From NCBI GenBank assembly GCA_025054955.1, contig JANWZE010000031.1, forward strand, positions 38,567 through 102,566: a stretch of 64,000 nucleotides of DNA, given 5' to 3'. A program made the translations under genes and the position numbers. Origin of the DNA: Blastocatellia bacterium (GTDB lineage: Bacteria > Acidobacteriota > Blastocatellia > HR10 > J050). Under the pieces are notes generated by a model. That model searched no databases, was not told the origin of the DNA, and worked only from the letters and a program-made list of their open reading frames with translations. Below, piece after piece: positions 3,197 through 56,518 of this stretch (position 1 is the stretch's first letter; each line of letters opens with the position of its first letter).

Positions 3197-3386
3197 GTCA
3201 TCAATGGTGGTTTCATTCAGATTGTTCTGGCAGGATTAGAAAGCGCGGATTGAGAAGCAATCACACGAGACCATCAGCGGTGGTTTCATTCAGATTGTTC
3301 TGGCAGGATGAGAAAGCGCGGATTGAGAAGCAATCACACGAAACCATCAGCGGTGGTTTCATTCAAGCTGTTCTCACAGGAAGGCT
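3197..3386. repeat. tandem direct repeat, ~81-bp unit x ~2.3, beginning at the methyltransferase stop codon
   Basis: 'catca(a/g)(t/c)ggtggtttcattcagattgttctggcaggat(t/g)agaaagcgcggattgagaagcaatcacacga(g/a)ac' is repeated. The first copy includes the gene's last codons. Confidence 0.85.
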
Positions 3387-4850
3387 ATGGACATAAGGAC
3401 GTATGGACGGAGGGCGGATAAGGCGCCTGTTCTCATTGCTGGTTATCCGCGCCGACGCTCGCCTGCACTGGTTGGTCTGGGATGGCGTGATCTGTTCGTT
3501 CAGGATCAGCTCGTGCATAGCGCATTGATTGGCACGATTGTCATCGGCTTTTTCATCGCCTATATCAAGGATCGTTATCCGATTCCGCTAAGCTATTTCC
3601 TATTCGACATCGGTCTGGGTGTGACGCTGTTATTTTGGTTGACGGGAACGGATCGGCTCTCTCATCTGCGGCTGCCGCGAACGCCGCTGACGCTGCCGCT
3701 GCTGATTTTCTACATGGTGTGCTTTGTCTACATTTTCTTTCCTGATGTTCCGTTGCTGGTTAGTCTATCAGCCTTTCGCGGCTGGTGTGTATCATCGCTG
3801 GCGTTTTTCATCGGTTATGATCTCATCAAATCCGAGCGGCATGTTGAGTTCTACCTGCGTCTTGTTATTCTGCTAGGGATGATCGCCGGCGCCTACGGCA
3901 TCTACCAATATGCGGCTGGCATCGAGAGTGTGCTGAGCGACGATGTCATCGCTTCGCAGCGTCACCAGTTTGCTACCTATGTCACCGAGGAAGGTGAGTT
4001 GGAATTTCGCATTTTTTCCACGTTCGTCTCGGCAGGCGCATTCGGTACAATGATGTCATATACCAGCTTCATCGCGTTGGCGCTCGCCATCAGCGATAAG
4101 GTTTCAACGCGCCAGAAGGTGCTACTGGGATTGGCGATCCTGCCGATGTTGACCAGCCTTGTGCTAACCGGCACGCGCGCAGCGTTGCTCATGATGGTGA
4201 TTGGCGTGGTGATTCTTTACTGGTACAAGCGCCATTTCCGCATCTATGTCACGGTCATGATTCTGATCCTGATAGGCGTTCAACTCGGCATCAGCCTGAC
4301 GGAAGGGCGCGCCGCGAGCCGGTTCGCTTCGTTGACCAACCTCGACGTGTTGCTCGGGCGGCTATCCAATCCGTTCATTACTGGCTGGGAATCGCTCATG
4401 CAAGCGCCATTGGGGCATGGCCTCGGCGTCACCGGTCATGGCGTGCCGTTCTATCTGCTGCAACAGTATCCAACATTGCAGCTCATCTTTTCCGATGGTG
4501 ATTATGGACGAATCATGGTGGAAATGGGCATCGTGGGCTTGGCGCTGCTCTCGTTGATCATGCTGACGGCCATTCGAGGTGGTGTTAAATCACTGCGGAT
4601 GCTACGCACGACGCCATCACAAGATGCCGCATTGGCCATCTTCGGCAGCAGCGTGATGGTTGGCATTACAACGTTGGTTGGCTCACCATTTCTCGGCATT
4701 CCTCATGGCTTGTTGTGGTGGTTTTTCATGGGCGCGCTGTTCAAATTGCAGATAATCTGGGCTGACCGCCGACAAGGCGCGGCGATTGAGGTCGCTCGAC
4801 GCCAGGTGGCGACTGCTGCTGCACGCCGCCGTGCGAACGTAGCGCCGTGA
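3387..4850 (+). CDS. O-antigen ligase / polysaccharide polymerase-like polytopic membrane protein (Wzy/WaaL family)
   Basis: About 10-12 hydrophobic segments. Lies in a GT cluster. A loop segment ...GTRAALLMMVIGVV... and a periplasmic-loop region are typical of the O-antigen ligase family. Confidence 0.6.
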   Translation: MDIRTYGRRADKAPVLIAGYPRRRSPALVGLGWRDLFVQDQLVHSALIGTIVIGFFIAYIKDRYPIPLSYFLFDIGLGVTLLFWLTGTDRLSHLRLPRTPLTLPLLIFYMVCFVYIFFPDVPLLVSLSAFRGWCVSSLAFFIGYDLIKSERHVEFYLRLVILLGMIAGAYGIYQYAAGIESVLSDDVIASQRHQFATYVTEEGELEFRIFSTFVSAGAFGTMMSYTSFIALALAISDKVSTRQKVLLGLAILPMLTSLVLTGTRAALLMMVIGVVILYWYKRHFRIYVTVMILILIGVQLGISLTEGRAASRFASLTNLDVLLGRLSNPFITGWESLMQAPLGHGLGVTGHGVPFYLLQQYPTLQLIFSDGDYGRIMVEMGIVGLALLSLIMLTAIRGGVKSLRMLRTTPSQDAALAIFGSSVMVGITTLVGSPFLGIPHGLLWWFFMGALFKLQIIWADRRQGAAIEVARRQVATAAARRRANVAP

Positions 4851-7057
4851 TGAAAATAGCCTTCGTTGTGCATGACTATCACAAAGCCGGCGGCCACAGC
4901 CGGTATGTGGCCGAGTTGGCCGAACGCTTCGCTCGCGAGCACGACGTGCATGTATTCGCCAACCGGATCGAAGGTGATCAGCCGGCCAACATTCATTTCC
5001 ATCATGTCCCAGCGTGGCGCGCGAGCGCGTTGAGCACGATCCTGACCTTCATCCTGCCGGCGACGCTGAAACTCACCGACCCGTTCGAGATCGTTCACGC
5101 TCAAGGTTTGTCCTGTTGGCGGGCTGATGTAGTGACGGCGCACATTTGTCAGGAAGGCTGGTTTGCCGCACAGGCAGCGTATCAAGGCGGACTCACTTGG
5201 CAGCAACGCCTCTTTCGCGCGCTCGTCGGACGGATGGAACGATGGGTCTATCAGCCAGCGCATTCATCGCACGTCATTGCCATTTCCCAAGCCGTGCGCC
5301 AGGATTTACGCCAGCACTACGGTCGCACACAAAATGTGCATGTGATTCATCACGGCGTGGACGTCACACGATTTCATCCGAATCAACGAGCGCGCCATCG
5401 GGCGCATACACGCGCCGTATGGGGATTGGCCGACACAGATTTCGTCGCCCTGTACGTCGGTGATTTGCAGAAAGGCGCTGCCACAGCCATTGAAGCCATC
5501 GCTCGCGTCGAGGGCGCGCGATTGGTTTTCGTCTCCCGCTCACAAGCAGATTCCTATCGGCAACAAGCAACAGCATTGAATGCCGGCGACCGCGTCATCT
5601 TTTGTCCGCCGACCGACCAGATTGAACGAATCTACGCTGCCGCCGACGCGCTCTTATTCCCCACGTTCTACGATGCGTTCGGCATGGTCATTACGGAAGC
5701 GATGGCGATGGGCTTGCCGGTTGTCACAAGTCGGGCAGCAGGCGCCGCCGAATTGATCGAGCATGAACGGAGCGGCATCATCGTTGAAAAAGCCGATGAT
5801 GCCACATCATTCAGCGTGGCCTTGCGACGCTTGATGACTGACGTTCAGCTCAGAGAACGACTCGGCGCAAACGCTCGCCAAACGGTTGAAGCACGCACGT
5901 GGGATCACGTCGCCGAACAAACAATGGCCGTCTACCGACGAGCGTATGAGCAAAAACACTCGGCCAAACCAACAATTGCGTTTCTGATCAACGGCGGTCC
6001 AACCACCCCCTTGAGCGCGCGCGCCGAAGCGTTCACCAAGCGATTGCAGGAAGGCTATGACATTCATCTGTTGTATCGCTCCCGACGCAAAATCGGCTCG
6101 CTGTTGCGATTGACAGCAGCGTTGTTTCGTATCAAGCCGTCGCTCAGTTATGTGTTCGACATGAGCTACTCCGGCGTGCTGGCGGCGGCGCTTTACAAGC
6201 TCTGGTCAAACAATCGGGTTGTTGTTGATACAGGCGATGTCATTTATGAGCTGGCCAAATCAATGGGCACACGAAGCCGTTTAGGACTTTGGTTGACAAA
6301 GCAACTGGAGACGCTGTCGTTAAACGTGGCCGATTATCTCATTGTGCGTGGCACGCGCCATAAGCAATGGCTCCAGTCACAAGGCCTCCATCGCGTCGAG
6401 GTCATTCAAGATGGTATCGAACGGGAAGCGTTTCGACCTGTGGACGCAACGGCGCTGCGCCGGCAACTGGCGTTGGAGAATGTGTTGACCATCGGACTTG
6501 TCGGGACATCCATCTGGAACGAGCGATGGGATATGGGCTACGGCTGGGAGCTGGTTGAGGCGCTGCGGCTGCTCAAAGGCGAGCCGGTGAAAGGCATTTT
6601 GATCGGCGATGGCGACGGCATTGCGCGACTGAAGGCACGTTGCCGGGAGTATGGCCTCGAAGACAATATGCTGTTTCTTGGTTATGTGCCGCACGAGCAA
6701 TTGCCGCTCTACCTCAACCTGATTGATGTGTGCATTTCTACGCAGACGAACGATCTGGTTGGTCAGGTGAGAACGACCGGCAAACTGCCACTCTATCTAG
6801 CCGCCGGACGATTCATTCTGGCGACCCGCGTGGGCGAGGCTGCGCTCGTGTTGGACGAGGACATGCTCGTGGATTATGAAGGCGTCAAAGATAGAGAGTA
6901 TCCGCAACGGCTCGCCCAGCGCATCCGCGCCATTGTGCGCGACCGCGCCCAGCTTGAACGCGGCGAGCGCAACCGGCGCGTGGCGGCTGAGTATTTCGAT
7001 TATGATGTGTTGGCTGAGCGGCTCAAAAACGTGATCTCCGGCTTGATAGGAGTATGA
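4847..7057 (+). CDS. two-domain glycosyltransferase (N-terminal GT4 domain plus a second GT-B-like domain)
   Basis: 736 aa. Residues 1-370 are a classic GT4 (MMKIAFVVHDYHKAGGHSRY ... FPTFYDAFGMVITEAMAMGLPVV). Residues ~375-736 form a second Rossmann-like GT-B domain. The gene overlaps the upstream stop. Confidence 0.7.
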   Translation: MMKIAFVVHDYHKAGGHSRYVAELAERFAREHDVHVFANRIEGDQPANIHFHHVPAWRASALSTILTFILPATLKLTDPFEIVHAQGLSCWRADVVTAHICQEGWFAAQAAYQGGLTWQQRLFRALVGRMERWVYQPAHSSHVIAISQAVRQDLRQHYGRTQNVHVIHHGVDVTRFHPNQRARHRAHTRAVWGLADTDFVALYVGDLQKGAATAIEAIARVEGARLVFVSRSQADSYRQQATALNAGDRVIFCPPTDQIERIYAAADALLFPTFYDAFGMVITEAMAMGLPVVTSRAAGAAELIEHERSGIIVEKADDATSFSVALRRLMTDVQLRERLGANARQTVEARTWDHVAEQTMAVYRRAYEQKHSAKPTIAFLINGGPTTPLSARAEAFTKRLQEGYDIHLLYRSRRKIGSLLRLTAALFRIKPSLSYVFDMSYSGVLAAALYKLWSNNRVVVDTGDVIYELAKSMGTRSRLGLWLTKQLETLSLNVADYLIVRGTRHKQWLQSQGLHRVEVIQDGIEREAFRPVDATALRRQLALENVLTIGLVGTSIWNERWDMGYGWELVEALRLLKGEPVKGILIGDGDGIARLKARCREYGLEDNMLFLGYVPHEQLPLYLNLIDVCISTQTNDLVGQVRTTGKLPLYLAAGRFILATRVGEAALVLDEDMLVDYEGVKDREYPQRLAQRIRAIVRDRAQLERGERNRRVAAEYFDYDVLAERLKNVISGLIGV

Positions 7058-8159: not shown

Positions 8160-9331
8160 TTAGGATTTTGTTTCTCAATTCATCATCGCAACTGGGCGGC
8201 GCCGAATGGGTGCTGCACGACGTGGTCACCCATCTGGATGCAAAGCGATTCACGTCATTGGTGGTTCTGCCAAAGCCGGGGCCGCTCCTTGATAAACTGC
8301 GCGACGCCGGCATTGACGTTCGACTTATGAGCCCATTCGAGCCGTTGCTTGGACTGGGTCGCTACAGTCGCTGGATGGAGATCGGGCGCATGCTGCCTGC
8401 CTTCGCCCGCGCTCTGACCGGGCTGTTTCACCTCAAGCGGATCATCGAACAAGAAAGGATTGACATCGTTCATGCACACGGCATCAAGATGCATTTTCTG
8501 AGTGGCGCGCTTCGTCTTGTGATTAACACGCCGCTGATATGGCATCTTCACGATTTCGTGCGTCAGCGCCGTTTTTACCCGCTGTATGTGCGGTTGGCCG
8601 AGGCATGCCCGTCATTGATCATTGTCAACTCGCATGCGGTCGCTGCTGACTTGGGTCGAATGCGGAACATTGCTGTCGTCCACAACGGCGTTGACATTGA
8701 TAGTTTTTCGCCGGTCGAGAGGCAGCGCGATGGTTCTCTGCGCGTCGGCATCATCGGCATGCTCGCGCCGTGGAAAGGGCATCATGTATTCCTCGACGCA
8801 GCTCGGCTGGTCAGTCGGCAAGTAGATCAGGTGACCTTCTGGATCATCGGCGACGAGATTTACGATACCGCCGGCCATCGAGGCTACCGACAACAGCTTG
8901 AGGAGTGGGTAAGGGTCAACAACCTTGAGCAGTATGTGAGGTTCACTGGCTTTCGCTCGGATGTCGCCCGCGTCATCAATACACTCGACGTCGTCGTCCA
9001 CGCCTCAATTGAGCCGGAGCCGTTCGGCCGTGTCTTGATTGAAGCGATGGCGTGTGGTAAACCGGTGATCGCCTCGAATGCAGGCGGAGTGCCAGAAATT
9101 GTTGAGCATGAAGTGACCGGCTTGTTGACTAGGCCGCGCGATGCCCAACAACTGGCGGGTATGATCATGAGATTGTTGCAGGACGAATCAGAGCGCAAGC
9201 GATTCGGATTGGCAGGCCGTCGGCGTGTCGAGCAGCATTTTTCGTTACAGCGGCAGGTTCATCGGATTGAAGCGATCTATGAATCGTTGATGAGTGGACG
9301 GTGGTCAGTGGGCAATGAAGAGGAAAGGTGA
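8156..9331 (+). CDS. glycosyltransferase, GT4 family
   Basis: MIRILFLNSSSQLGGAEWVL... and ...HASIEPEPFGRVLIEAMACGKPVIASNAGG.... 4-nt overlap with the upstream gene. Confidence 0.8.
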   Translation: MIRILFLNSSSQLGGAEWVLHDVVTHLDAKRFTSLVVLPKPGPLLDKLRDAGIDVRLMSPFEPLLGLGRYSRWMEIGRMLPAFARALTGLFHLKRIIEQERIDIVHAHGIKMHFLSGALRLVINTPLIWHLHDFVRQRRFYPLYVRLAEACPSLIIVNSHAVAADLGRMRNIAVVHNGVDIDSFSPVERQRDGSLRVGIIGMLAPWKGHHVFLDAARLVSRQVDQVTFWIIGDEIYDTAGHRGYRQQLEEWVRVNNLEQYVRFTGFRSDVARVINTLDVVVHASIEPEPFGRVLIEAMACGKPVIASNAGGVPEIVEHEVTGLLTRPRDAQQLAGMIMRLLQDESERKRFGLAGRRRVEQHFSLQRQVHRIEAIYESLMSGRWSVGNEEER

Positions 9332-9540
9332 TCGGTGGTTGTGGCCAGTGGTCAGTGGACAGGGGACAGTGGTTAGTAGACATTGAACAGGAGAAGTGGA
9401 CAGTGTTTGGTGGCTAGTGGTCAGTGGACCGGAGCTAGTTATTTCAATTAGCTCCTGGCTTCTGGCTCCTGATTTCTGGCTTCTGGCTTCTGACTCCTGG
9501 CTTCTGACTCCTGGCTTCTGACTTCTGACTCCTTCAACCT
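9332..9540. repeat. composite short-period repeat region: a 'cagtggacag'-type block, a 7-bp-stem palindrome (ggagcta...tagctcc), then ~9 copies of a 13-14-bp unit 'cctggcttctgact'
   Basis: Read directly from the sequence. The antisense ORF 9448..9633 is only the translation of this repeat. Confidence 0.85.
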
Positions 9541-11135: not shown

Positions 11136-11516
11136 ATGTCGGAAACCGCACAGTACATTCCGGTCTTGATCCTGCTGATTTTCACGTTGCTCATTGGCGG
11201 TGTGATGTTGTTGTTGCCTAGGTTGATTGCCCGTCGTCGCCCGACGCCGGAAAAGAATATGGCGTATGAGTGTGGCAAAGACCCCATTGGCTCGCCGCGC
11301 GAACGTTTTAGTATTGCGTTTTATCTGGTTGCCATGATTTTCATCTTGTTTGATATTGAGGCAATTTTCCTCATTCCGTGGGCAGTGGTGTTTCATGATC
11401 TGGCTGCGGAGTTTTCCAAGGCATTCGTTTTCGTTGAGATGATGATTTTCATTGCCATCTTATTGGTTGGTTACGTCTACGTGTGGAAGAAAGGCACGTT
11501 TGATTGGAATCGGTGA
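11136..11516 (+). CDS. nuoA: NADH-quinone oxidoreductase subunit A
   Basis: Small 3-TM protein. Conserved ...YECGKDPIGSPRERFSIAFYLVAMIFILFDIE.... Confidence 0.9.
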   Translation: MSETAQYIPVLILLIFTLLIGGVMLLLPRLIARRRPTPEKNMAYECGKDPIGSPRERFSIAFYLVAMIFILFDIEAIFLIPWAVVFHDLAAEFSKAFVFVEMMIFIAILLVGYVYVWKKGTFDWNR

Positions 11517-11600
11517 TCGTTATGATGGATGACAGGCGCATGGCCATCCATGTTTCATCGTAAACCTCCAACGTTTGATTGGAATTGGTGATCGTTATGA
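11497..11600. repeat. duplication of the 29-bp 3' end of nuoA (cgtttgattggaat(c/t)ggtgatcgttatga), repeated 75 bp downstream and overlapping the nuoB start
   Basis: Copies at 11497-11525 and 11572-11600. Confidence 0.85.
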
Positions 11601-15749: not shown

Positions 15750-17939
15750 ATGACAGAGTTGGTGAAAGTGACCATTGATGGTCGAGAGTTCACAGCGCCC
15801 AAGGGAGAGTACCTGTTAGAAGTTTGCGAAACGAACGGCATTTATGTGCCGAACTTCTGCTATTATCACAAACTGCAACCGCAGGCCGCTTGCCGCATGT
15901 GTTTGGTGCGGATTGAGCGCATGCCGAAACTGCAAACAGCCTGCACTGTGCGCGTGCAAGACGGCATGATCGTGACGACACAATCGGATGAAATCAAGCA
16001 AGCGCAGCAAGGCATGGTTGATTTCATCCTGTCAAATCACCCGCTGGATTGCCCCATGTGCGACAAGGGCGGCGAGTGCGAATTGCAGTACATGAGCTTC
16101 ACCTTCGGCAATCTGTTCGCTCGCATGATGGAGACAAAGAACCATCAGGACGAGCGAGCGCTCAGCCCGTTCATTTATCTGGACCCGCAGCGGTGCATTC
16201 TCTGTTATCGTTGCATTCGCACCTGCGATGAGTGGGTTGGCGACCATGCGCTCGGCGTGCTGGGACGCGGCGCGCGTTCGGTCATCATCGGCAATAAGCG
16301 AGATGGGACGCTCGAATGCGAGCAGTGCGGCAATTGCGTTGAGGTCTGTCCGGTCGGGGCATTGACCAGCGCCAATTTCCGCTTCAAAGCGCGTCCATGG
16401 GATATTGAGGACACGATCACGACCTGCACCTACTGCGCTGACGGCTGCCAGTTGAAATTGAGCGTGCGTGAAGGCAAAATCGTACGCGCTTGGGCCAAAG
16501 ACATGACCGGCATCAATCACGAATTCCTGTGTATCAAGGGACGCTACGGAAATGAATTTGCTAATAGCCCGGACCGTATTCGCACGCCGCTGATTCGTCG
16601 CAACGGCCAGTTGGAACCGGCCGGCTGGGACGAAGCTATCGCGCTCGTTGCTGCCCGATTGAAAGAAATCAAAACCAAGTACGGCGCGGATAGTATTGCC
16701 TGCATCGGCTCGCCACGATTGACTAATGAAGTGCTCTACGTGTTCAACAAGTTTGCGCGTGAGGTGATTGGCGCTTCCCGTGTCAGCTTGGTGGCCGACG
16801 ACTGGCGCCCGTTCTTCAAGCATCTGAGCTCACCATTGGCAACGCAGGAAGAGATTCGCACAGGGCGAAAAACCCTGCTGCTCATTGGCGGTAATCCACC
16901 CGAATACAACCCGCTGACTGCCTACAGCCTGCGGTTTGCCGTCAGAGAGAATGGGTCACGACTGATCTATGCCAACGCGCGACCGCTGCGGCGCATGCAA
17001 CACGCGGCAGAGTTCTTGCATATCCGGTCTGGCTCAGAACCGGCGCTCATCTTGGCGCTGCTTGATGAGACGCAGTTGGAAACGGCCGCAGCCTGCACCA
17101 ATCTCAGCATCGAGCAGCTACGCGGCCTGCGCCATACGCTCGAACAAAGCCAGGATGTCGTGTTCCTAATCGGACCGGAGGTTCGCGGCGCGGCGATGGA
17201 AGCAGCAGCGATGCTTGGCCAACGATGGTCAACGGATGGCCGTCAGGTACGTTTGCTGCCGCTCTTGCGATTTAACAATTCGCTCGGCGCACTCGATATG
17301 GGACTCACCGACGACTTGCCAGCGCCGGAAGATGTCGGGCCAAGCATCAAGGCGCTCTATCTGGTCGGCGCGGAGCTGATCCGCTATGGCGGCGCTCAGT
17401 GGTGCGATGCGTTGGAACGAGCCGAATTTGTCGTCATGCACCAGTTATTCATGACGCCATCATGCGAACGCGCCGATGTGGTGCTGCCGGCGATGAGCTT
17501 CGCCGAAATTGACGGCACGTTTACCAACGACGGCGGTCAGGTGCAACGCGTGCGTCGCGCGCTGGATGCGCCCGGCGAACGTCGGCCCGATTGGATGATT
17601 ATTCGTCTGGTCGCCAAATGCATGGGTCAGGATATGGATTTGAAGAGTTCGGCCCCAGCGCTGTTCAAAGACATGGCCGAACAGATTCCGGGCTATGAAG
17701 GCATCACCTACGCGTTGCTTGGTCAACAGGGAGCTGTGCAAACGCAACGACCAATGGCTCACGGCATCAATATTGAAAAGATTATGAGCCGACTCAAAGC
17801 GCAAGTCGAGGCAGTGGATCGGACCCGCGCAATGATCAACGAGCCGCCGCCGCTTGGCGAAGGATTATTCGAGCGCGGTTCGCTGGTGGAACACGTGCCG
17901 TTGCTGGCCAAGGTGTTTGGGTGGAATGGGCAGGAGTAG
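15750..17939 (+). CDS. nuoG: NADH-quinone oxidoreductase subunit G (75-kDa)
   Basis: N-terminal 2Fe-2S and 4Fe-4S Cys clusters (CYYH..C..C; HPLDCPMCDKGGECELQ) plus a molybdopterin-like domain. Start set at MTELVKV, which overlaps the nuoF end. Confidence 0.9.
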   Translation: MTELVKVTIDGREFTAPKGEYLLEVCETNGIYVPNFCYYHKLQPQAACRMCLVRIERMPKLQTACTVRVQDGMIVTTQSDEIKQAQQGMVDFILSNHPLDCPMCDKGGECELQYMSFTFGNLFARMMETKNHQDERALSPFIYLDPQRCILCYRCIRTCDEWVGDHALGVLGRGARSVIIGNKRDGTLECEQCGNCVEVCPVGALTSANFRFKARPWDIEDTITTCTYCADGCQLKLSVREGKIVRAWAKDMTGINHEFLCIKGRYGNEFANSPDRIRTPLIRRNGQLEPAGWDEAIALVAARLKEIKTKYGADSIACIGSPRLTNEVLYVFNKFAREVIGASRVSLVADDWRPFFKHLSSPLATQEEIRTGRKTLLLIGGNPPEYNPLTAYSLRFAVRENGSRLIYANARPLRRMQHAAEFLHIRSGSEPALILALLDETQLETAAACTNLSIEQLRGLRHTLEQSQDVVFLIGPEVRGAAMEAAAMLGQRWSTDGRQVRLLPLLRFNNSLGALDMGLTDDLPAPEDVGPSIKALYLVGAELIRYGGAQWCDALERAEFVVMHQLFMTPSCERADVVLPAMSFAEIDGTFTNDGGQVQRVRRALDAPGERRPDWMIIRLVAKCMGQDMDLKSSAPALFKDMAEQIPGYEGITYALLGQQGAVQTQRPMAHGINIEKIMSRLKAQVEAVDRTRAMINEPPPLGEGLFERGSLVEHVPLLAKVFGWNGQE

Positions 17940-18065
17940 TGGACTGTGGAGAGCGGACGGTGGACAGCACGCGTCACCTCTCCACTGGTCACTGAATGGG
18001 AGAGTGGACGGTGGACAGCGCTCATCAACTGTCCACTGACCACTGAATTCGTGGTGGGAAAGAAC
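17940..18065. repeat. 'GTGGACAG'-type short-period repeat block with an imperfect palindrome, directly after the nuoG stop (family B)
   Basis: gtggactgtggagagcggacggtggacagc...cagcgctcatcaactgtccactgaccactgaa. The tail is shared with the 23838-23880 block. Confidence 0.8.
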
Positions 18066-19083: not shown

Positions 19084-19170
19084 TCGTTGATTGGCAGTGG
19101 CCAGTCGTTGCTCGTTAGCGCCTTTGGCTTGACCAGCATCGGACGACAAGCGGCGGACAGCGGGATTGAT

Positions 19171-19728
19171 ATGGAACAGACGCTTTTCATCGTGTTTGCC
19201 GGGATTGCCGTCGTGGCGGCGCTCAACGTCTTGCTGCGACGTAATCCGCTGCATAGCGCCTTATCATTGCTTGCCGTAATGGCAGCGTTGACAGGATTGT
19301 ACATATTGCTCAATGCTCATTTCATCGCCGTTGTGCAGGTCATCATTTACGCCGGCGCCATGTTGGTCCTCTTCCTGTTCGTCATCATGTTGCTTAATGT
19401 GCGAACGGAAGAGACACGGATAGATCGTTGGCCGGTGATGAAATGGTTGGCAATTCCCTTTGCCATCGGATTAGCCGGACAGATCGTGTATGTCCTGCGG
19501 TTGTTTGAGGCGAATCCAGTGCCGGTCGGCAACGATATTGGATTGACTGAGTCTGTTGGCAAAGCGATATTCACCAGGGGATTATTGCCGTTTGAACTCA
19601 CTTCAATCCTGATCTTGGTTGCGATCATCGGAGCGATGGTGTTGGCGCAAAGGGATCGCGGATCACGGACCACGAATCACGGAGCACGGATCACGGACCA
19701 CGAATCACGGACCACGGAAAGAGGTTGA
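19171..19728 (+). CDS. nuoJ: NADH-quinone oxidoreductase subunit J, with an unusual C-terminal repeat tail
   Basis: NuoJ-like TM core. It follows nuoH directly with no nuoI between them. The C-terminus DRGSRTTNHGARITDHESRTTERG is encoded by a tandem 'cacgga(c/g)cacgaat' repeat. The start may lie upstream (ORF opens at 19087). Confidence 0.8.
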   Translation: MEQTLFIVFAGIAVVAALNVLLRRNPLHSALSLLAVMAALTGLYILLNAHFIAVVQVIIYAGAMLVLFLFVIMLLNVRTEETRIDRWPVMKWLAIPFAIGLAGQIVYVLRLFEANPVPVGNDIGLTESVGKAIFTRGLLPFELTSILILVAIIGAMVLAQRDRGSRTTNHGARITDHESRTTERG

Positions 19729-19729
19729 T

Positions 19730-20032
19730 ATGATTCCAATGTCATGGTACTTAGCATTGGCCGCTGTGCTGTTTACAATTGGCGCTGTTGGCGTGGTCGT
19801 CAAGCGCAATGTCATTTCCATGATGATTGCCATTGAGTTGATGCTCAATTCGGCGAATCTGACACTGGTGACATTCTCCAGTTACTTTGGCGAGCTGAGC
19901 GGACAGGTGTTAGTTTTCTTCGTCATGGTCGTGGCCGCGGCAGAAGCGGCTGTCGGATTGGCGATTGTCGTGTTGTTATTCCGCAATCGTCAAACGATCA
20001 ACGTTGATGAAGCCAGCATGTTGAAGTTGTGA
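19730..20032 (+). CDS. nuoK: NADH-quinone oxidoreductase subunit K
   Basis: 100-aa 3-TM protein MIPMSWYLALAAVLFTIGAVGVVVKRN.... Confidence 0.9.
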   Translation: MIPMSWYLALAAVLFTIGAVGVVVKRNVISMMIAIELMLNSANLTLVTFSSYFGELSGQVLVFFVMVVAAAEAAVGLAIVVLLFRNRQTINVDEASMLKL

Positions 20033-20183
20033 TGGGGATCAGAAGTCTAGGTAAAGGATGTTGTATTCAACGTTGATGAAGCGAGCCTGTTGAAGTTGTG
20101 ATGGGGGTGAGAAATCTAAAACACATTGCATTCAACGTTGATGAAGCCAGTCTTGTTGAAACCTGTGATGCGATGAGAAGCCC
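20000..20183. repeat. three tandem ~65-bp copies of the nuoK 3' end (caacgttgatgaagc(c/g)ag...ttgaag(t/a)tgtgatgggg)
   Basis: Copy 1 is the true gene end and stop. Copies 2 and 3 fill the nuoK-nuoL spacer. Confidence 0.85.
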
Positions 20184-23730: not shown

Positions 23731-23935
23731 TGGAGAGTGAGAGCGGTTTGCAAATGAGTTTATCCTGGGGGGCACGCACGTGCATCAGCCCGCAAGATGC
23801 AGGCCCCAGGCTAACGGCAATGGAAAATCGCTCTAGAGTGGACAGTCCACAGCACTCATCAACTGACCATTGATACAAACCGCCGACCACCGGCCACGAA
23901 TCACTGGCGTACTTGGGATTTCAGATTTTTAGTTT
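23690..23935. repeat. composite repeat: family-B 'gtggacag/gtggagag' blocks flanking a ~90-bp family-A structured element (23745-23836)
   Basis: Left B part 23690-23744, A element 23745-23836, right B part 23838-23880. The arrangement suggests A inserted into B. Confidence 0.7.
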
Positions 23936-32568: not shown

Positions 32569-32610
32569 CAATTGAGATTTCTCTTAACTTCATATCAAGG
32601 AGTGATGATT

Positions 32611-32712: not shown

Positions 32713-32767
32713 TCGTAATTCAGGTTTTTCTTACTTTCAAAATATCAAATAAAAAAGGAGAAATGAC

Positions 32768-32875
32768 ATGAATAAGATCAAACAGCAACTCGGACAGATT
32801 GACCCCATCACCCTATTGCTGGCTTTGTTGTTGGCGCTGGGCACAGGCGCTTGCCCTATTGCGCTGGGTCGCTAA
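32768..32875 (+). CDS. small peptide 4 (35 aa, MNKIKQQLGQIDPITLLLALLLALGTGACPIALGR)
   Basis: RBS AAAAGGAGA. Paralog. Confidence 0.6.
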   Translation: MNKIKQQLGQIDPITLLLALLLALGTGACPIALGR

Positions 32876-32911
32876 TCACGACGCATCAGCCTGCAAATCA
32901 GGAGACGAAAC

Positions 32912-33013
32912 ATGAAAGCGATTACGCGACAGCTCGGACAAATAGATCCCGTTACCATTTTGATAGCCCTGTTGCTTGCACTAAGCGCGGGAACTTGTTC
33001 AATCGTACCCTGA
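32912..33013 (+). CDS. small peptide 5 (33 aa, MKAITRQLGQIDPVTILIALLLALSAGTCSIVP), most divergent copy
   Basis: RBS CAGGAGA. Paralog. Confidence 0.55.
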   Translation: MKAITRQLGQIDPVTILIALLLALSAGTCSIVP

Positions 33014-43102: not shown

Positions 43103-43390
43103 CGAGCAAGGCCAGCGCGTTCAGCAACGTTTCATCCGCACGCATGTTTCGACGTGTATTAGTAGAGATGAGCAGGGCTAGATTGCGTTCAGTGACGTTT
43201 CATCCGCGCGCGTATCTGGACACGAGCTAGAGCGATTTGCGAATGAGTTTATCCTGGGGCGCGCACTTCCAGCATGCATGAGCCCGCAAGATGCGGGCGC
43301 TCCCCGGGTAAAGGCAAATGAAAATCGCTTTAGTGAGAAGGATGAGCGCGGCACAGGGTCGCGTTCAGTGACGTTTCATCCGCGCGCGTA
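43103..43390. repeat. repeat cluster: three copies of a ~35-bp unit derived from the GT2 gene 3' end (gcgttcag(t/c)(g/a)acgtttcatccgc(g/a)cgc(g/a)t(a/g)t) flanking a ~100-bp family-A structured element (43231-43333)
   Basis: Unit copies at about 43126, 43185 and 43357. The 43357 copy contains the gene's stop and last codons. Confidence 0.8.
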
Positions 43391-44867
43391 TCTCGACTGT
43401 CCGCAGCCAATCCTTATAGGCGTCATATTGATTCATCGTGGTTAAAGGCAAGGCTCGGTCTGTATTCTCTTCCCAGCGCCGGACCAAATAAAGCGATTCA
43501 TAGATGCGTCCGATTTCATACTCTCGACTGATGCGCAGCCCGACGGCATAATCTTCGCCATAGCTCGTATTGGGAAACTTGATCTGTCGTAGCACAGGCA
43601 CATAAAACGCGCGAGGCGCGCCCAGACCAAGAACCCGTAACGCATTATTGCGACCGTTCTCCTGCGTCCATTCCCGATGATCAATCAACCCGGGGGGGGT
43701 CTCTTCGAGGTTGAAGTTGACGGTCGTGTACGAGCCAATGACCATCGCATATCGAGGCGCGGCCGTTGGCGATTCCCAGAATTTGTCAACCATCGTTTGT
43801 AGGGTATGTGTGTCACGATACAAATCATCCGAATCAAGCTGGACAGCAATTAACCCGCACTCCGGTGAATCAATCGCTTCATTCCAGCAACCACCAATAC
43901 CGAGATCGGTTCGTTGAGGAATCTTGTGAATCAAATTCTTATGCTGTCGAGCCGAGTTTTTGACGATGTCTGTTGTGCCGTCAGTCGAGTGGTTATCCAC
44001 CACGATGACGTTATAAGCGAACGAGGTTTCCTGGCTCAGGGCGCTATTGATAGCATCGGCAATCGTTTTCTCTCGATTACGCACTGGAATGACGATGCTT
44101 GCCATCACGGGAAAAGCGGTTTCGGTCGCCGGCGGTGATTGAAAGACCGGCTCCAAAAACGCGCCGATACGACGTAGATGGGCAGTAGCAATTCGCTCCA
44201 TCTCCAGTTGGTAATCGCGGTTATTGGGGTCAACATAACGATGGACAGGCTCCAGATCGGCTTGCTCGTCAATGGCCACCGGGCAGCGCGTGTAGAGCGG
44301 TTCCGGAACGCGGACAATGGCTGAATCAATTGAGATTTTCAGCCGAAGATCGTACACGCCGCCCCAGCGGATCGTTGCTTCAATGCGCCCGTGCTGCCGT
44401 CGCGCCCGGTCTGCTGCTTGTTTTGAGATCAGCAACAGCGAACCAAAATCAAAGGTGTCGCGGATGCTGCCCAGTTGATAATCAATGGTCGGGTGTTCGG
44501 TCACCTGACCGTGATTCCGCTCTCTAAAATCGGCATATATGATTCCGGCCTGTGTATCATCCATCACGGCGAGCAACCGTTCGATGGCTTGCTGACTGAT
44601 GTCCACCTCGTGACCGGGTAAAAGAAGCAACAGATGCTCAGTCGTGACAGCATCGAGGGCGCGCTCGATGCAATCACCGGAGAACCAGGAATCGGCCTGA
44701 AGGAATTGCACGCCGTCAGGCGGCGCTTGTAGCGGTGGGGTTTCCCGATGTAACACCACGGTGCGCTCGATCAGCGGATTCTGCGTGAACAGTTCGAGCT
44801 GGCGAGCAAACCCAGAAGCGCCAGCGTGATCAGAGAAATCAGGTATGATAGCTGTCAACGGTTTCAT
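43365..44867 (-). CDS. glycosyltransferase family 2 protein (two-domain; GT2 catalytic domain in the C-terminal half)
   Basis: ...MASIVIPVRNREKTIADAINSALSQETSFAYNVIVVDNHSTDGT... with a DxD-like QLDSDD. Confidence 0.7.
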   Translation of the reverse strand: MKPLTAIIPDFSDHAGASGFARQLELFTQNPLIERTVVLHRETPPLQAPPDGVQFLQADSWFSGDCIERALDAVTTEHLLLLLPGHEVDISQQAIERLLAVMDDTQAGIIYADFRERNHGQVTEHPTIDYQLGSIRDTFDFGSLLLISKQAADRARRQHGRIEATIRWGGVYDLRLKISIDSAIVRVPEPLYTRCPVAIDEQADLEPVHRYVDPNNRDYQLEMERIATAHLRRIGAFLEPVFQSPPATETAFPVMASIVIPVRNREKTIADAINSALSQETSFAYNVIVVDNHSTDGTTDIVKNSARQHKNLIHKIPQRTDLGIGGCWNEAIDSPECGLIAVQLDSDDLYRDTHTLQTMVDKFWESPTAAPRYAMVIGSYTTVNFNLEETPPGLIDHREWTQENGRNNALRVLGLGAPRAFYVPVLRQIKFPNTSYGEDYAVGLRISREYEIGRIYESLYLVRRWEENTDRALPLTTMNQYDAYKDWLRTVEIRARMKRH

Positions 44868-46437: not shown

Positions 46438-46543
46438 CCGTGACAATCATACGCCAAGCATCACCGGTATACGGTGGCTCGGGCAATGGCATTTGCTGTA
46501 GACGAATCGGGTGACAATCATACGCCAAGCATCAGCGGTATGC
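46438..46543. repeat. two direct copies (~33 bp, gtgacaatcatacgccaagcatca(c/g)cggtat(a/g)cg), the second containing the 3' end and stop of the 46532..47650 gene
   Basis: Seen directly. The copies are spaced ~73 bp apart. Confidence 0.8.
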
Positions 46544-47650
46544 GACTCTCATCTGCGACGGTCGTTGTTGAACCGCTATCACATCGAACGAAAGGCGGCC
46601 GAGCAACCGACCCTGCGTTGTTTTCACTTCCACGCGCCACTTGCCCGGTCCAATGTTTCGCTTGAGCGAGTAACCGCGATAGCCGCCCTCGCGACCGCCT
46701 ACAATCGGGTAGCTATGTTGGCCTCGGATGGTCCACCGGCCGTTTGCGTCTTTTTGTTGCCATTCGTGCACAACCTGCTCGTTCAATTGCGTCGGCGCGA
46801 ACACGGCTGTGAAGCAGTAAACGGTATCACCCGTGGCGTAGTGGAAATCGCGTTCATCCTGTTTCCAAAATTGCCACCAACTTGGCTGACGATATGTCAC
46901 CTCGTACTTGTCGCCGAGGCGCTTGACGCTGCGATAGATGCCGCCATCTTTCAGCGCGAGCGGCACAGGCGGCATCCAGTTTAAGAAATAGAAGCAGACA
47001 AGCGCGGCGAAAATCACCAACGGGAGTTGAGCAGCATGTAGCATCTGGTTGCGCCATCGCTTGCCATGAATGAGCGCCAGGATGGCGGCCAGCGGCGCAA
47101 AGCTCACAAGGCCGCTTGTGATGAACAGGCCGTCGCTCATGGTACGGGTTACCACCGGCAGGAAAAATGTGAAAAAAGCGAAGCAGCAAAAGTAATAGAT
47201 CGCCGTGAGCAGCGTGAGATTGCGGAGCCGATGCGAAAAGAATTCGTTCGCCAACATCAATCCCACAAGCAGGAGGACGAAGATCAGGGATTTTCCCACG
47301 CCAGCGCTTTTGAAATAAAAGACCACATAGCTGGAAAGCAAGCCACCCAAGAAAAAGTGGGTAGCAGCGGTGATCAGGTCCAGCCGACGGATGACCCAAG
47401 CGCGGGTGAGGTATCCTTGCTCGACGCGACCGATGATGACGATAAGCAAGCCGGCGGCCAAGGCGTAGCCGAGCAGGATCAGATTGTCAGACCATTTGTC
47501 AATCCGTGTGAGCGTAAGCGTATCCCAGAGGAATCCGGCGATGAACGCTCCCAACGGGATGTATTTCTCATAGCGCTGATACCAGTATTTAAGCAGTTGG
47601 TGGCGATGTGCGATGGTTGGTGGCGTGCGCGCGATATGCTCGTCGGACAT
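46532..47650 (-). CDS. polytopic membrane protein with C-terminal soluble beta-rich domain (hypothetical; DUF2914-like impression)
   Basis: About 8 hydrophobic helices followed by a ~130-aa hydrophilic domain. No catalytic motif recognised. Confidence 0.45.
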   Translation of the reverse strand: MSDEHIARTPPTIAHRHQLLKYWYQRYEKYIPLGAFIAGFLWDTLTLTRIDKWSDNLILLGYALAAGLLIVIIGRVEQGYLTRAWVIRRLDLITAATHFFLGGLLSSYVVFYFKSAGVGKSLIFVLLLVGLMLANEFFSHRLRNLTLLTAIYYFCCFAFFTFFLPVVTRTMSDGLFITSGLVSFAPLAAILALIHGKRWRNQMLHAAQLPLVIFAALVCFYFLNWMPPVPLALKDGGIYRSVKRLGDKYEVTYRQPSWWQFWKQDERDFHYATGDTVYCFTAVFAPTQLNEQVVHEWQQKDANGRWTIRGQHSYPIVGGREGGYRGYSLKRNIGPGKWRVEVKTTQGRLLGRLSFDVIAVQQRPSQMRVAYR

Positions 47651-47805
47651 AGTCGTTGTGGTTATAAAGCCATTGTCATTTCGCTCGTTTTCGACGGGCT
47701 GCTGGTGAGCCTGTTTGGACGCGCAAAGCGGCGGTGTTTCTGTCGCGCTATGTCGAGACTGAATGCTAACGCCGACCTCAACAGCAAGTCGTATGTGAGA
47801 TGATC

Positions 47806-47969
47806 GTGCCGGTTCATGTTTCTCTTTGTGTCGTGTGCCGAATTAGTGCGTTAGCTCATAGTTCTCTTCATTCGGCAGGTCGTATGCAAGGTTATTGCGT
47901 TGGTTCATGGATCGCTTCGTGTGGTGCGCAAGGTTATTGTGTTGGTTCATGGCTCTCTTCGTTCGGCAG
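47806..47969. repeat. tandem partial duplications (~40-bp unit x ~3) of the adenosine deaminase gene 3' end
   Basis: gcaaggttattg(c/t)gttggttcatgg(a/c)tc(g/t)cttcgt... is repeated. The last copy encodes ...LPNEESHEPTQ*. Confidence 0.8.
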
Positions 47970-50883: not shown

Positions 50884-50920
50884 AGAGCCTCCTCAAGGAT
50901 CAATGATTCGATCTTCACGT

Positions 50921-51070
50921 CTCCGTTTTCTCGCATCAGTTTTGAACTGTCCCAGATGGCGTGTCCGCCTGGGCATTCGACACATTCGATATTCCAGTTT
51001 CAAGTCCCCGCTTTCTCCCGTCAGTTTTGAACTGTTCCAATCGCATGTCCACCGGTGCATTCGATATTTT
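50921..51070. repeat. two tandem ~75-bp direct repeats in the 5' leader of the M2 peptidase gene
   Basis: cc(g/c)(t/c)tttctc(g/c)c(a/g)tcagttttgaactgt(c/t)cca... is repeated. Confidence 0.8.
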
Positions 51071-51081
51071 AGGATGTTGCC

Positions 51082-52329: not shown

Positions 52330-52425
52330 TAAAAATCCGGGAGCGCACGCTTCCGGCGTGCCGAGCTGTCCGCTCCAACAAGCATGCAAGATGCATGCGC
52401 TCCCAGGGGGATGGCAGGGAAGGTT
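52330..52425. repeat. deleted or variant copy of the family-A structured repeat
   Basis: ccgggagcgcacgc...agcatgcaagatgcatgcgctcccaggggg preserves the outer stem gggagcgca/tgcgctccc. Confidence 0.45.
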
Positions 52426-54290: not shown

Positions 54291-54410
54291 TTTGGCTTAC
54301 TCATTCGTATCGAACATGCCCACTGAGCGGCTTGGCTTGCTCGTTCGTATCAAACATGCCCACTGAGCGGCTTGGCTTGCTCATTCGTATCGAACATGCC
54401 TACTGAGCGG
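54291..54410. repeat. three tandem 40-bp repeats containing the aguB 5' end (…cttggcttgctc(a/g)ttcgtatc(g/a)aacatgcc(c/t)actgagcgg)
   Basis: Period exactly 40 bp, three copies. The third copy carries the presumed ATG at 54396. Confidence 0.85.
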
Positions 54411-55295
54411 AGATTCACCATTGGCCTTGTGCAGATGGCCATGTCGGCTGAGCCGGCAGAGAACCTGGCGCGCGCGCTGGAACATGTTCGCGCGGCAGCC
54501 CGGTTGGGCGCGCAGGTCGTTTGCCTGCCCGAACTATTCCGCTCGCGCTACTTCTGTCAGCACGAGGACGCGGCGTGGTTTGACTTAGCCGAACCCATTC
54601 CCGGACCAACCACTGAGGCGCTCTCCGCAGTGGCTCAGCAAGAGGCTGTGGTTGTGATTGCGTCAGTGTTTGAGCGGCGCGCGCCGGGCCTCTACCACAA
54701 CAGCGCGGCTATCATTGACGCTGATGGCCAGCTTGTTGGCCTTTATCGCAAGATGCACATTCCTGACGATCCGGCCTATTATGAAAAATTCTATTTCACG
54801 CCTGGCGACCTCGGTTTCCGTGCGTTTGAAACGCGCGTCGGGCGGCTCGGCGCGTTGATCTGTTGGGATCAGTGGTATCCAGAGGGCGCGCGCTTGACGG
54901 CGCTTCGTGGCGCCAGTGTGCTGTTTTACCCGACAGCCATTGGGTGGCATCCGCATGAGAAAGAGCAGTACGGCGCGGTGCAGCGCGATTCGTGGCGCAC
55001 CATTCAGCGCGGCCATGCGATTGCCAACGGCGTGTACGTGGCGGCCGTCAATCGTGTGGGACATGAAATCCCTCCAACAGGTGGGGCAGGCATCGAGTTT
55101 TGGGGCAGCTCATTCATTGCCGACCCGCAAGGCGTGATCATTGCTGAAGCCTCCACCGACAAGGAAGAAATTCTGCTCGGTGATGTTGACCCGGAACGCA
55201 TCGAAGATGTGCGGCGCAACTGGCCATTCCTGCGCGACCGGCGGATTGATGCGTATGTCGGGCTGGACCGGCGCTATCTCGAAGAGGAGCGGTGA
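54396..55295 (+). CDS. aguB: N-carbamoylputrescine amidase (carbon-nitrogen hydrolase family)
   Basis: Nitrilase-superfamily Glu-Lys-Cys triad (E50 of ...VCLPELF..., K in ...YRKMHIP..., C in ...LICWDQWYPE...). Strong similarity to plant and bacterial N-carbamoylputrescine amidases. Adjacent to aguA. The start is uncertain because it sits inside the repeat. Confidence 0.8.
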   Translation: MPTERRFTIGLVQMAMSAEPAENLARALEHVRAAARLGAQVVCLPELFRSRYFCQHEDAAWFDLAEPIPGPTTEALSAVAQQEAVVVIASVFERRAPGLYHNSAAIIDADGQLVGLYRKMHIPDDPAYYEKFYFTPGDLGFRAFETRVGRLGALICWDQWYPEGARLTALRGASVLFYPTAIGWHPHEKEQYGAVQRDSWRTIQRGHAIANGVYVAAVNRVGHEIPPTGGAGIEFWGSSFIADPQGVIIAEASTDKEEILLGDVDPERIEDVRRNWPFLRDRRIDAYVGLDRRYLEEER

Positions 55296-55329
55296 TGGGG
55301 CAGAGCGCCTGTGGACCTGCGGAGGAGTC

Positions 55330-56412
55330 GTGACGCAGCAGCTCATCAGCCGACCGACGCCGGCCTCGCTCGGTTTTCAGATGCCTGCTGAGTGGGAGCC
55401 GCACGAAGCCACGTGGATTGCCTGGCCGCATAATCGCACGGATTGGCCGGGCAAATTGGCGGCGATTCAGTGGGTCTACGGCGAGATCGTCCGCAAACTA
55501 GCGCCTGGCGAACTCATTCGCATTTTAGTCAACTCGGCAGCGCATGAAGCGCAGGCGCGCCGATTACTGGCTCGCGTGGGCGTTGATCCAACTCGCGTCG
55601 AATTCTTTCGCATTCCTACTAATCGCTCGTGGACGCGCGATTATGGTCCGTGGTTTGTGCGCAAGGCAGGCCGTCGCCGAGAAGCGGCCGTCATACGATT
55701 TCGCTTCAATGGCTGGGCGCGTTATCGCAATTGGCAAAGAGATGATCGGGTGGCTGAACGCGCGGCGCGCGTGCTTGGTTACCGGTTGTTCTCGGCGAAG
55801 GTCAACGGACGGCTCTTCGTGCTGGAGGGCGGCAGCATTGACGTCAATGGACACGGCACCGTGATGACAACGGAAGAGTGCTTGCTTGATCCCGTTGTGC
55901 AAGTGCGCAATCCAGGAGTGACGCGCCAGCAGACGGACGCTGCATTGAAAGCGTTTCTCGGTGTGACCAATGTGCTCTGGTTGGGCAAGGGCATTGCTGG
56001 CGACGATACGCACGGTCACATTGACGATCTCTGCCGGTTTGTTGGCCCGCGCACGGTGGTCCTGTGTCGTGAAACAAATCCGAAGGACGCTAATTACCGT
56101 CCGCTGGAAGAAAACCGCGAACGGCTTGAAGGCATGCGACTGGAAGATGGCTCGAAAATAGAGATTGTTCCGCTGCCGATGCCCGCGCCTCTGTATTTCG
56201 CTGGCCGACGATTGCCGGCCAGTTATGCCAATTTCTATATTGCGAACGCTGCCGTGCTTGTGCCGACGTTCAACGATCCGAATGATCGCATCGCGCTTGG
56301 CACGCTAGCCGAATTATTCTCTGATCGTCCGGTGATTGGCATTCATGCTGTTGACCTCGTATGGGGCTTTGGCACGCTCCATTGCCTCACGCAGCAGCAG
56401 CCCCGTTTGTGA
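55330..56412 (+). CDS. aguA: agmatine deiminase
   Basis: MPAEWEPHEATWIAWPH signature and the C-terminal catalytic Cys region ...GTLHCLTQQ. GTG start preceded by GGAGGAG. Confidence 0.85.
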   Translation: MTQQLISRPTPASLGFQMPAEWEPHEATWIAWPHNRTDWPGKLAAIQWVYGEIVRKLAPGELIRILVNSAAHEAQARRLLARVGVDPTRVEFFRIPTNRSWTRDYGPWFVRKAGRRREAAVIRFRFNGWARYRNWQRDDRVAERAARVLGYRLFSAKVNGRLFVLEGGSIDVNGHGTVMTTEECLLDPVVQVRNPGVTRQQTDAALKAFLGVTNVLWLGKGIAGDDTHGHIDDLCRFVGPRTVVLCRETNPKDANYRPLEENRERLEGMRLEDGSKIEIVPLPMPAPLYFAGRRLPASYANFYIANAAVLVPTFNDPNDRIALGTLAELFSDRPVIGIHAVDLVWGFGTLHCLTQQQPRL

Positions 56413-56416
56413 TCGC

Positions 56417-56518
56417 GCCACGCAGGCTCCTTGCTTGCATACAAGCCCGACTGCCCCCTTGTCAACGAGCGACCACGCTTTGCAATCATGCCACGCAGGG
56501 CCACTGCTTGCACAGGGC
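56417..56518. repeat. two ~32-bp direct repeats (gccacgcagg(c/g)(t/c)c(c/a)(t/c)tgcttgca(t/c)a) between aguA and the S9 peptidase gene
   Basis: Seen directly. Confidence 0.6.

Follow-up and report, generated by a model that had tools for sequence, protein, structure and literature searches.

Bacterial minisatellites, or loci with a variable number of tandem repeats (VNTRs), consist of head-to-tail units of ~10–100 bp. Those known as MIRU-VNTRs (for mycobacterial interspersed repetitive units) are minisatellites that are mostly intergenic and are thought to be transcribed within polycistronic operons (PMC3635867). Microhomology-mediated tandem duplications (MTDs) arise broadly, are depleted or in frame in essential genes, have no frame bias in intergenic DNA and are fixable in natural isolates; this filter by reading frame and location has been shown experimentally in yeasts, and in Escherichia coli MTDs were detected at ~1/20 of the frequency in Schizosaccharomyces pombe (PMC8639346). 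No direct precedent turned up in the literature for tandem duplications at prokaryotic gene termini. Here we examine a 64,000-nt stretch of the Blastocatellia bacterium assembly GCA_025054955.1 (contig JANWZE010000031.1, positions 38,567–102,566 of the forward strand; hereafter the window), in which an initial annotation had noted that the ends of many genes are repeated in tandem in the adjacent spacer. Ten or eleven spacers in the window contain locus-specific tandem or near-tandem copies of a gene 3′ end, a gene 5′ end or a gene junction, with periods of 38–85 bp (Table 1; sites are named after their flanking genes or by position). These arrays are probably locus-specific bacterial minisatellites of an insertion-prone lineage that have been filtered by selection, and their unusual feature is their rate or retention in this lineage.

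The recurrence of the repeats at many gene boundaries was borne out, in that all nine sites of the initial annotation exist and repeats of this kind are far more frequent in the window than in other bacteria. An ungapped diagonal scan (offsets 20–250, score of at least 18) identified 15 local-repeat loci per 64 kb of the window, and none at that score in mononucleotide and dinucleotide shuffles. The same measure was applied to two control sets totaling 1.57 Mb: 1.14 Mb around the nuo operons of 63 other bacteria had 35 loci (2.0 per 64 kb), and 0.43 Mb around DUF2914 genes in Joint Genome Institute (JGI) metagenomes had 1.8 loci per 64 kb. The window thus has ~8 times as many local repeats as typical bacterial DNA. 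In the first control set 23 of the 35 periods were multiples of three, and the two loci checked, both in contig L004, lie in frame within a coding open reading frame (ORF); for out-of-frame junction repeats the enrichment is above ~8-fold.

Comparison contigs were obtained from Logan assemblies, with near-identical ones from run SRR15826902 and a ~98% identical strain from run SRR28863565. Two contigs, L090 and L142, represent close strains (98% and 98.7% identical to the window, respectively), and a sister clade (L083, L091–L094, and L096; runs SRR27730018-47 and SRR24314927) has ~85–88% DNA identity to the window and full synteny with it. In the sister clade (L083, L091, and L096) every comparable junction has one copy only, and the diagonal scan detected no loci in the sister contigs vs. 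eight in 40 kb of orthologous window DNA (sign test, p ~0.004). As the sister clade is single-copy at every site compared, the duplications are derived and lineage-specific. All alignment gaps of at least 8 nt relative to these relatives represent extra sequence on the window side, the extra bases in three comparisons (window:relative) being 331:36, 199:26, and 510:27, and insertions of miniature inverted-repeat transposable elements (MITEs) and of a palindromic element are likewise specific to the window. The extra DNA is composed of recognizable copies of adjacent sequence or of MITEs and was therefore gained in the window lineage. The units themselves derive from the local gene: the C-termini of NuoA and NuoK duplicated in the window (TFDWNR and INVDEASMLKL, each followed by a stop) have counterparts in TFDWNK and stop in L086 and in a near-identical nuoK 3′ end in L083. 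In L086 the nuoA–nuoB spacer is 2 nt, and in L083 the nuoG–nuoH spacer is different and shorter and the nuoJ end has a heptamer-rich 80-nt spacer instead of an array. Similar events occur singly in more distant relatives: the 3′ end of nuoJ is duplicated (52 bp) in L089, and a 30-nt repeat extends across a gene end in L097. L097, the closest JGI relative, also has in one spacer (4928–5145) two adjacent pairs of 43–44-nt palindrome-containing repeats at 63–65-bp spacing; these are elements resembling repetitive extragenic palindromes and contain no gene-end copies. A NuoH search of reference genome contigs identified relatives with at most 58% identity among the matches listed, which served only as controls; named NuoL and DUF2914 homologs had 55–70% identity and came from Acidobacteriota or Blastocatellia sources, and an exact look-up of the 736-aa glycosyltransferase returned no record.

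The location of the arrays was compared with a placement model in which the extra copies were removed to give an approximate ancestral sequence (90% coding), the observed lengths were placed on it at random, and events wholly inside a gene were discarded. Under this model 15% of positions are tolerated, and of these 34% are stop-inclusive, 35% start-inclusive and 45% purely intergenic. The ten observed events comprise four with a stop only, one with a start only, two with both and three that are intergenic; the proportion that is stop-inclusive (6/10) does not differ significantly from that predicted (p = 0.09). Duplications probably arise everywhere, with those inside genes being removed as they would shift the frame or disrupt the protein. 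A duplication that includes a stop codon would spare the upstream gene, and in one that includes a start codon the last copy would keep the downstream gene intact. With 90% of the genome coding and the spacers short, most surviving duplications would therefore be ones that contain a gene terminus or an entire stop/start junction. Consequently, we think it likely that the boundary pattern is the footprint to be expected of selection acting on position-blind duplication, with no need for targeting of termini. The two tandem repeats within ORFs are in frame, albeit in a small sample (57 nt at 30374, in an ORF without a Pfam match, and 24 nt at 23643, in nuoM). Among the junction periods about one third are divisible by three, as expected by chance (e.g., 75, 51, 69, and 42), contrary to the initial annotation, which had the units as not being multiples of three.

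The initial annotation had instead proposed a mechanism specific to gene termini, and we judge an explanation of this type, whether slippage at terminators, stalled transcription or replication complexes, or a recombinase or nuclease cutting near stop codons, to be very unlikely. It would account for six sites being stop-inclusive where 3.4 are expected, and the GT2, DUF2914, and add arrays do adjoin spacers of 91–405 nt in which intergenic placement was possible. However, that excess is not significant, random placement with a survival filter gives a mix of positions not significantly different from that observed, three sites lie entirely in intergenic DNA and one includes just a start, and processes acting on DNA are blind to stop codons except via selection. 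Slippage at transcription-termination sites is further argued against by the nuoA–B, nuoK–L, and aguB–aguA junctions, which are internal to operons (with ancestral spacers of −4 to 15 nt) and are thus not expected to have a terminator. The units share no motif, self-BLAST of the window (E ≤ 1e-3) found no similarity between units of different sites (its matches being within-site pairs, MITEs and two other dispersed pairs), and in Pfam scans, together with precomputed Pfam results for related contigs, none of the sizeable window ORFs had a domain of a recombinase, transposase, reverse transcriptase or Cas protein.

Repeats were detected with Tandem Repeats Finder (TRF), a seed-and-extend repeat search, self-BLAST and reading of the sequence, and the flanking genes were placed by Pfam scans together with gene calls on near-identical and related contigs (a curated map). 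Rfam and tRNA scans of the window had no matches, so that the arrays initially annotated as leaders contain no known RNA and involve no tRNA attachment sites.

Table 1. Repeat arrays at gene ends and junctions of the window, with the state of the same site in the sister clade (TRF, Tandem Repeats Finder).
Feature	Position	Strand	Detection or context	Sister clade vs. window
73-bp array, ×2.5	3199..3381	+	TRF score 306, 95% matches	
nuoA stop/nuoB start junction, duplicated	11496..11600	+	repeat search, self-BLAST, sequence	
51-bp tandem, ×2, heptamer-rich, nuoG–nuoH spacer	17948..18048	+	TRF score 146; absent from initial annotation	
Heptamer array (GGATCAC-like, ×9) forming last ~23 codons of nuoJ	19653..19722	+	TRF, gene calls on L081	
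nuoK–nuoL junction, ×3, units of 69, 65, and 69 bp	19998..20183	+	repeat search, sequence	spacer 15 nt, one copy (L083) vs. 151 nt
GT2 glycosyltransferase 3′ end plus ~40 nt downstream, ×3, 68–70 bp	43117..43397	−	repeat search, self-BLAST	downstream spacer 91 nt (L091) vs. about 337 nt
DUF2914 3′ end, 34-nt repeat ×2, 94% identity, 71-bp spacing	46440..46544	−	repeat search, sequence	one copy, no filler (L091, L096) vs. two copies plus filler
add (adenosine deaminase) 3′ end, LPNEESHEPTQ and stop, ×4, units of 49+42+49+42 bp	47788..47969	−	periods 42 and 91	
85-bp tandem, ×2, wholly intergenic	50906..51075	−	between ychF stop (51082) and Peptidase_M2 start (50883)	ychF spacer 112 nt, single-copy (L096) vs. 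198 nt
40-bp array with aguB start, ×3	54292..54410	+	TRF score 210	single aguB start (L096) vs. three copies
aguB stop/agmatine deiminase start junction, duplicated	55284..55333	+	indel scan vs. relative; absent from initial annotation	genes overlap by GTGA (L096) vs. 38-nt insertion
Agmatine deiminase 3′ end (stop 56410–56412), 34 nt ×2, 76% identity, 73-bp spacing	56406..56512	+	repeat search	single deiminase end (L096) vs. two copies

The structures of the arrays differ in several details from those initially annotated. The array at 3199, which had been assigned an 81-bp unit from the end of a methyltransferase gene, lies after the methyltransferase stop (3196) and occupies the whole spacer up to the start of a Wzy-like gene (3387), with the layout a-f-a-f-a, where a is a 37-nt repeat and f a 36-nt filler, the two fillers being copies of each other. 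Likewise, the add array had been read as three units and in fact has four. For the aguB array, described as exact 40-bp copies, the period and the count of three held up while the exactness did not, the copies being 92–95% identical. In each aguB unit the ATG is preceded by 25 nt of leader and followed by 12 nt of coding sequence, and the ATG of the last copy (54396) is the true start; the Pfam CN_hydrolase match begins at residue 17 of the ORF. The nuoK–L unit is composed of the last ~35 nt of nuoK, its stop, the ribosome-binding site and the first ~20 nt of nuoL, and the two upstream pseudo-starts of this array have no ATG. At nuoA–B a 30-nt repeat (11496–11525 and 11571–11600) surrounds 45 nt of non-homologous filler, and the DUF2914 repeat represents the last eight codons, the stop and 7 nt, with a 37-nt filler between copies that is homologous to neither flank. 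The middle unit of the GT2 array is interrupted by a ~107-bp MITE (43226–43332) with terminal inverted repeats CTAGAGCGATTT. The aguB/deiminase junction duplication was detected solely by comparison with a relative and consists of a 12-nt repeat (GAGGAGCGGTGA / GAGGAGTCGTGA) at 38-bp spacing, with a 38-nt insertion (55296–55333); the 26 nt between its copies share 54% identity with the 5′ coding sequence of the deiminase. The site at 56406 is the weakest (score 14, with ~0.4 expected by chance per window) and the oldest. The nuoJ heptamer array is a related symptom, repeat expansion at a gene end.

With regard to how the arrays formed, the first step would have been head-to-tail duplication of ~40–85-bp stretches, occurring often in this lineage, with replication slippage, template switching or the end-joining of staggered breaks as likely routes. 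Once two copies existed, unequal recombination or slippage changed the copy number, and pseudo-starts and pseudo-ends decayed. The nuoK–L, GT2, add, 50906, and 54292 arrays consist of complete tandem copies in which the whole unit is homologous, also to the single copy of the sister. The sequence of the add array fits a history in which the 49+42 pair formed first and a 91-bp duplication of the pair followed. Border microhomology is TCA at nuoK–L, GTCG at GT2, and at most 1 nt at aguB, the older arrays being too diverged to read; a 7-nt microhomology (ATTCGAT) considered at the 85-bp array was rejected, as the motif lies off the breakpoints.

Some of these observations weigh against our interpretation. 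The border microhomology is weak, which leaves slippage a candidate route. The periods cluster at 65–75 bp (65, 68, 69, 71, 73, 73, and 75), a hint of a preferred length, and a similar tendency is seen in the controls. The stop-inclusive excess is non-zero, and ten events provide little power. The scope of our data is 64 kb of this genome, so that the “genome-wide” of the initial annotation is an extrapolation. Finally, at three sites at least (3199, 11496, and 46440), and in L097, 30–37-nt repeats of 94–97% identity surround 36–45 nt that match neither flank, and for repeats this similar such fillers are not what simple duplication and subsequent neutral decay would predict. The fillers at the older sites 55296 and 56406 can be explained by decay, because weak similarity to the flanks remains (54% at 55296). 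Four fillers have the sequences TGGATGACAGGCGCATGGCC..., GTGGCTCGGGCAATGG..., TGAGAAAGCGCGGATTG..., and TACAAGCCCGACTG.... A MITE or transposon target-site duplication was considered as the origin of the fillers and rejected, since they are unique and without inverted termini.

The fillers raise the question of whether the repeat-filler-repeat sites are target-site duplications, produced either by ectopic integration of the Cas1-Cas2 type (a “neo-CRISPR,” after the clustered regularly interspaced short palindromic repeats) or as the footprint of a small mobile element, with arrays then growing by unequal recombination. Off-target integration of CRISPR spacers has been described. The dimensions of five sites are in keeping with such an origin (repeats of 30–37 nt, fillers of 36–45 nt, and sums of 66–75 nt), as are the n+1 repeats and n fillers of the 3199 array, the activity of MITEs in the lineage, and the absence of the filler from the sisters (46440) and from the 98.7% strain (nuoA–B) despite repeats that are 94–97% identical. 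Nevertheless, we regard this explanation as highly improbable. The repeat length varies (12, 30, 34, and 37 nt) and the filler extends to 45 nt, unlike the product of a ruler mechanism; no motif is common to the repeats; most arrays (nuoK–L, GT2, add, 50906, and 54292) are fully homologous tandem copies; and the residual flank similarity (54%) of the “filler” at 55296 and 56406 fits decay. No filler donor was found in the window or in 1.9 Mb of fetched loci, and four 24-nt filler cores had no exact match in viral contigs. The window has no cas gene or CRISPR array, and the MITE of the GT2 array is demonstrably a secondary insertion.

Deletion bias is usually assumed for bacteria. It is conceivable, although we consider it unlikely, that the window lineage is instead in an insertion-biased mutational regime, in which a specific lineage-restricted process that inserts ~65–75 bp gives rise both to tandem copies and to repeat-filler-repeat insertions, and of which the arrays would be the selection-filtered trace. 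Candidates for such a process include the fill-in and joining of staggered breaks, or an ectopic integrase or Cas1-like activity.

The initial annotation considered the repeats to be non-coding duplications rather than mis-assemblies, and in this it was upheld. Independent contigs from SRR15826902 are 99.9–100% identical to the window through seven arrays (nuoA–B, nuoG–H, nuoJ, nuoK–L, DUF2914, add, and ychF), and the ~98% strain of SRR28863565 has the nuoG–H, nuoK–L, DUF2914, and GT2 arrays with substitutions of its own. The nuoA–B insertion was also identified in an independent assembly (L095), the DUF2914 duplication in L090, and the nuoK–L array in L142, as indicated by its 152-nt spacer. 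An artefact of short-read metagenome assembly, such as concatenated strain variants or graph loops, is therefore extremely unlikely: the periods (40–85 bp) are shorter than the read length, the copies vary by substitutions, indels and a MITE insertion, and the copy that functions is in every case intact. That repeats can break assemblies is evidenced by contig L082, which stops exactly at the GT2 array, and the copy number of the most similar arrays (3199 and 54292) could be mis-estimated.

The duplications are recent and variable between strains. The GT2 array has three units plus the MITE in the window, four units without the MITE in L090, and one in the sister L091, and the 75-nt nuoA–B insertion (11526–11600) is absent from L142, where the nuoA–nuoB spacer is 5 nt. 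For arrays other than GT2 and nuoA–B the copy number equaled that of the window in the one strain compared. As GT2 copy number and the nuoA–B insertion vary between ~98% strains, the duplication process must be recent. The description of the copies as old was correct in part: identity between copies within arrays ranges from 76% to 100%, and the nuoA–B insertion is polymorphic between strains of 98.7% identity. A further proposal, that the arrays are footprints of the small dispersed elements, can be set aside, because the MITE is a late insertion into a pre-existing GT2 array. Synteny with L142 breaks ~100 nt upstream of nuoA (about 11033 in the window), and that with L090 ~87 nt upstream of the DUF2914 gene (about 47737), where a PhoU/two-component cluster replaces add. 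These breaks represent strain-level rearrangements, and their breakpoints are in spacers beside repeat arrays.

Could the duplications have been retained because they are useful? They might uncouple or re-tune translation, provide leader peptides or upstream ORFs (uORFs), or serve as variable spacers with a regulatory role, as has been proposed for the MIRUs of mycobacteria. Three events (nuoA–B, nuoK–L, and aguB–aguA) part genes that formerly overlapped or were 5–15 nt apart, the aguB array creates two 16-codon uORFs, the second of which ends over the true start, and several arrays hold small ORFs that overlap the upstream stop. However, with ATG, GTG, and TTG all allowed such small ORFs would arise by chance, the pseudo-starts have decayed, and the affected genes serve unrelated functions (respiration, the cell envelope, and polyamine and purine metabolism). 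The arrays are dispensable, since compact junctions suffice in the sister clade and in one strain, and we hold retention for usefulness to be quite unlikely. A small-ORF relay that maintains translational coupling was also considered and was rejected as indistinguishable from chance.

Several other elements were observed in the window and its relatives. The MITE-like family (~85–107 bp) is represented at 23737–23836 and 29785–29868 as well as in the GT2 array, with related cores near 63600–63650, and combines an internal GC-rich hairpin with terminal inverted repeats CTAGAGCG...CGCTCTAG. The sister L083 lacks the copy between nuoM and nuoN, and the absence of the GT2-array copy from the 98% strain L090 indicates that the MITE moved recently. 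Between ychF and a DUF2911 gene is a 92-nt palindromic insertion (52332–52423; arms GGGAGCGC...GCGCTCCC), missing from L096, with a hairpin core similar to that of the MITEs. Degenerate heptamer arrays (GTGGACA, GCTTCTG, and GGATCAC) occupy spacers at 9286–9533, 17938–17968, 19653–19722, 23690–23735, and 23838–23900, with different heptamers at the same spacers of L083; they resemble the short tandemly repeated heptamers of cyanobacteria. Two repeat pairs ~3.2 kb apart, one inverted (59913–59994 vs. 63134–63217, 86%) and one direct (60221–60264 vs. 63484–63527, 95%), flank radical-SAM, phosphatase and EEP-nuclease genes.

In the nuo operon (18070–19728) nuoH is followed by nuoJ with no nuoI (the 2×[4Fe-4S] subunit) between them, as is also the case in L083, L086, and L089; since it is not at this location in the window or the fetched relatives, nuoI is either encoded elsewhere or missing. 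In 72–73% relatives the nuoK–nuoL junction holds small inserted genes, namely HEPN-domain and DUF8091 genes, a toxin-antitoxin-like pair, in L086 (9326–9993), L087, and L088, and two small ORFs in L089 (2431–3104). The junction triplicated in the window is thus an insertion hot spot in the wider group. Upstream of an extracytoplasmic function (ECF) sigma factor gene (about 33140–33708) are five tandem paralogous mini-genes of 33–37 codons (32313–33013, plus strand; e.g., MNKIKQQLGQIDPITLLLALLLALGTGACPISF), each with a lipoprotein-like signal peptide and a lipobox (G-[TA]-[GA]-C), after which just 4–7 residues remain. From their sequences they look like a tandem family of tiny lipopeptide precursors. 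A 513-aa minus-strand ORF with a weak BNR_2 match overlaps the 3′ end of a convergent Peptidase_S9 gene by ~200 nt (58342–58548), and one of the two gene calls, or its end, is probably wrong.

The arrays offer a natural example of purifying selection setting where a class of mutation is visible, such that seeming targeting reflects the positions at which the mutation is harmless. They also place a lineage with growing spacers (through junction duplications, MITEs and heptamer arrays, at ~10:1 inserted:deleted bases relative to the sister) beside a compact sister clade, a contrast usable to find the responsible change in repair or replication. On a practical level, the arrays break short-read assemblies and spawn spurious small ORFs and mis-called starts (the raw ORF list had over-long versions of aguB, nuoB, and the deiminase), and they would serve as strain-typing markers.

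Among described systems, the diversity-generating retroelements (DGRs) share with the arrays a copy of a gene 3′ end just downstream of the gene. The window units are too short for a DGR and many unrelated genes are affected; a DGR origin was rejected, since mismatches between copies (A 15, C 11, G 17, and T 17) are not adenine-specific and there is no reverse transcriptase domain in the window. The repeat-filler-repeat organization with a period of ~66–75 bp at four or five sites is like that of CRISPR or of ectopic spacer integration, whereas the repeats vary by site in both sequence and length (12 to 37 nt) and most arrays are pure tandem copies. For MTDs, the same logic of a selection filter also explains the gene-boundary pattern of the window, and in our small sample the in-ORF periods (57 and 24 nt) and those of the junctions have the frame distribution of MTDs. 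Unlike MTDs, the window sites have border microhomology that is weak (3–4 nt at two arrays and at most 1 nt at a third) or unreadable, several contain non-homologous filler, and the rate appears to be lineage-specific.

The MIRUs resemble the window arrays in having units of ~50–80 bp between operon genes and a variable copy number; nuoA–B, nuoG–H, nuoK–L, and aguB–aguA are located in this way, with overlapping small ORFs at chance level. The MIRUs are a single dispersed sequence family at ~40 loci. The window arrays are not a family of this type, because each unit is unrelated to the others and is derived from neighboring genes. The arrays behave like bacterial VNTRs, i.e., the loci used in multiple-locus VNTR analysis (MLVA), in that the units are of tens of bp, head to tail, mostly in spacers and locus-specific, with a copy number that is strain-variable, as at GT2 and nuoA–B. 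The window arrays differ from these VNTRs in their density of ~8 times that of the control sets, in having units traceable to the terminus or junction of the adjacent gene, and in the availability of single-copy sister genomes, which let the events in the window be polarized.

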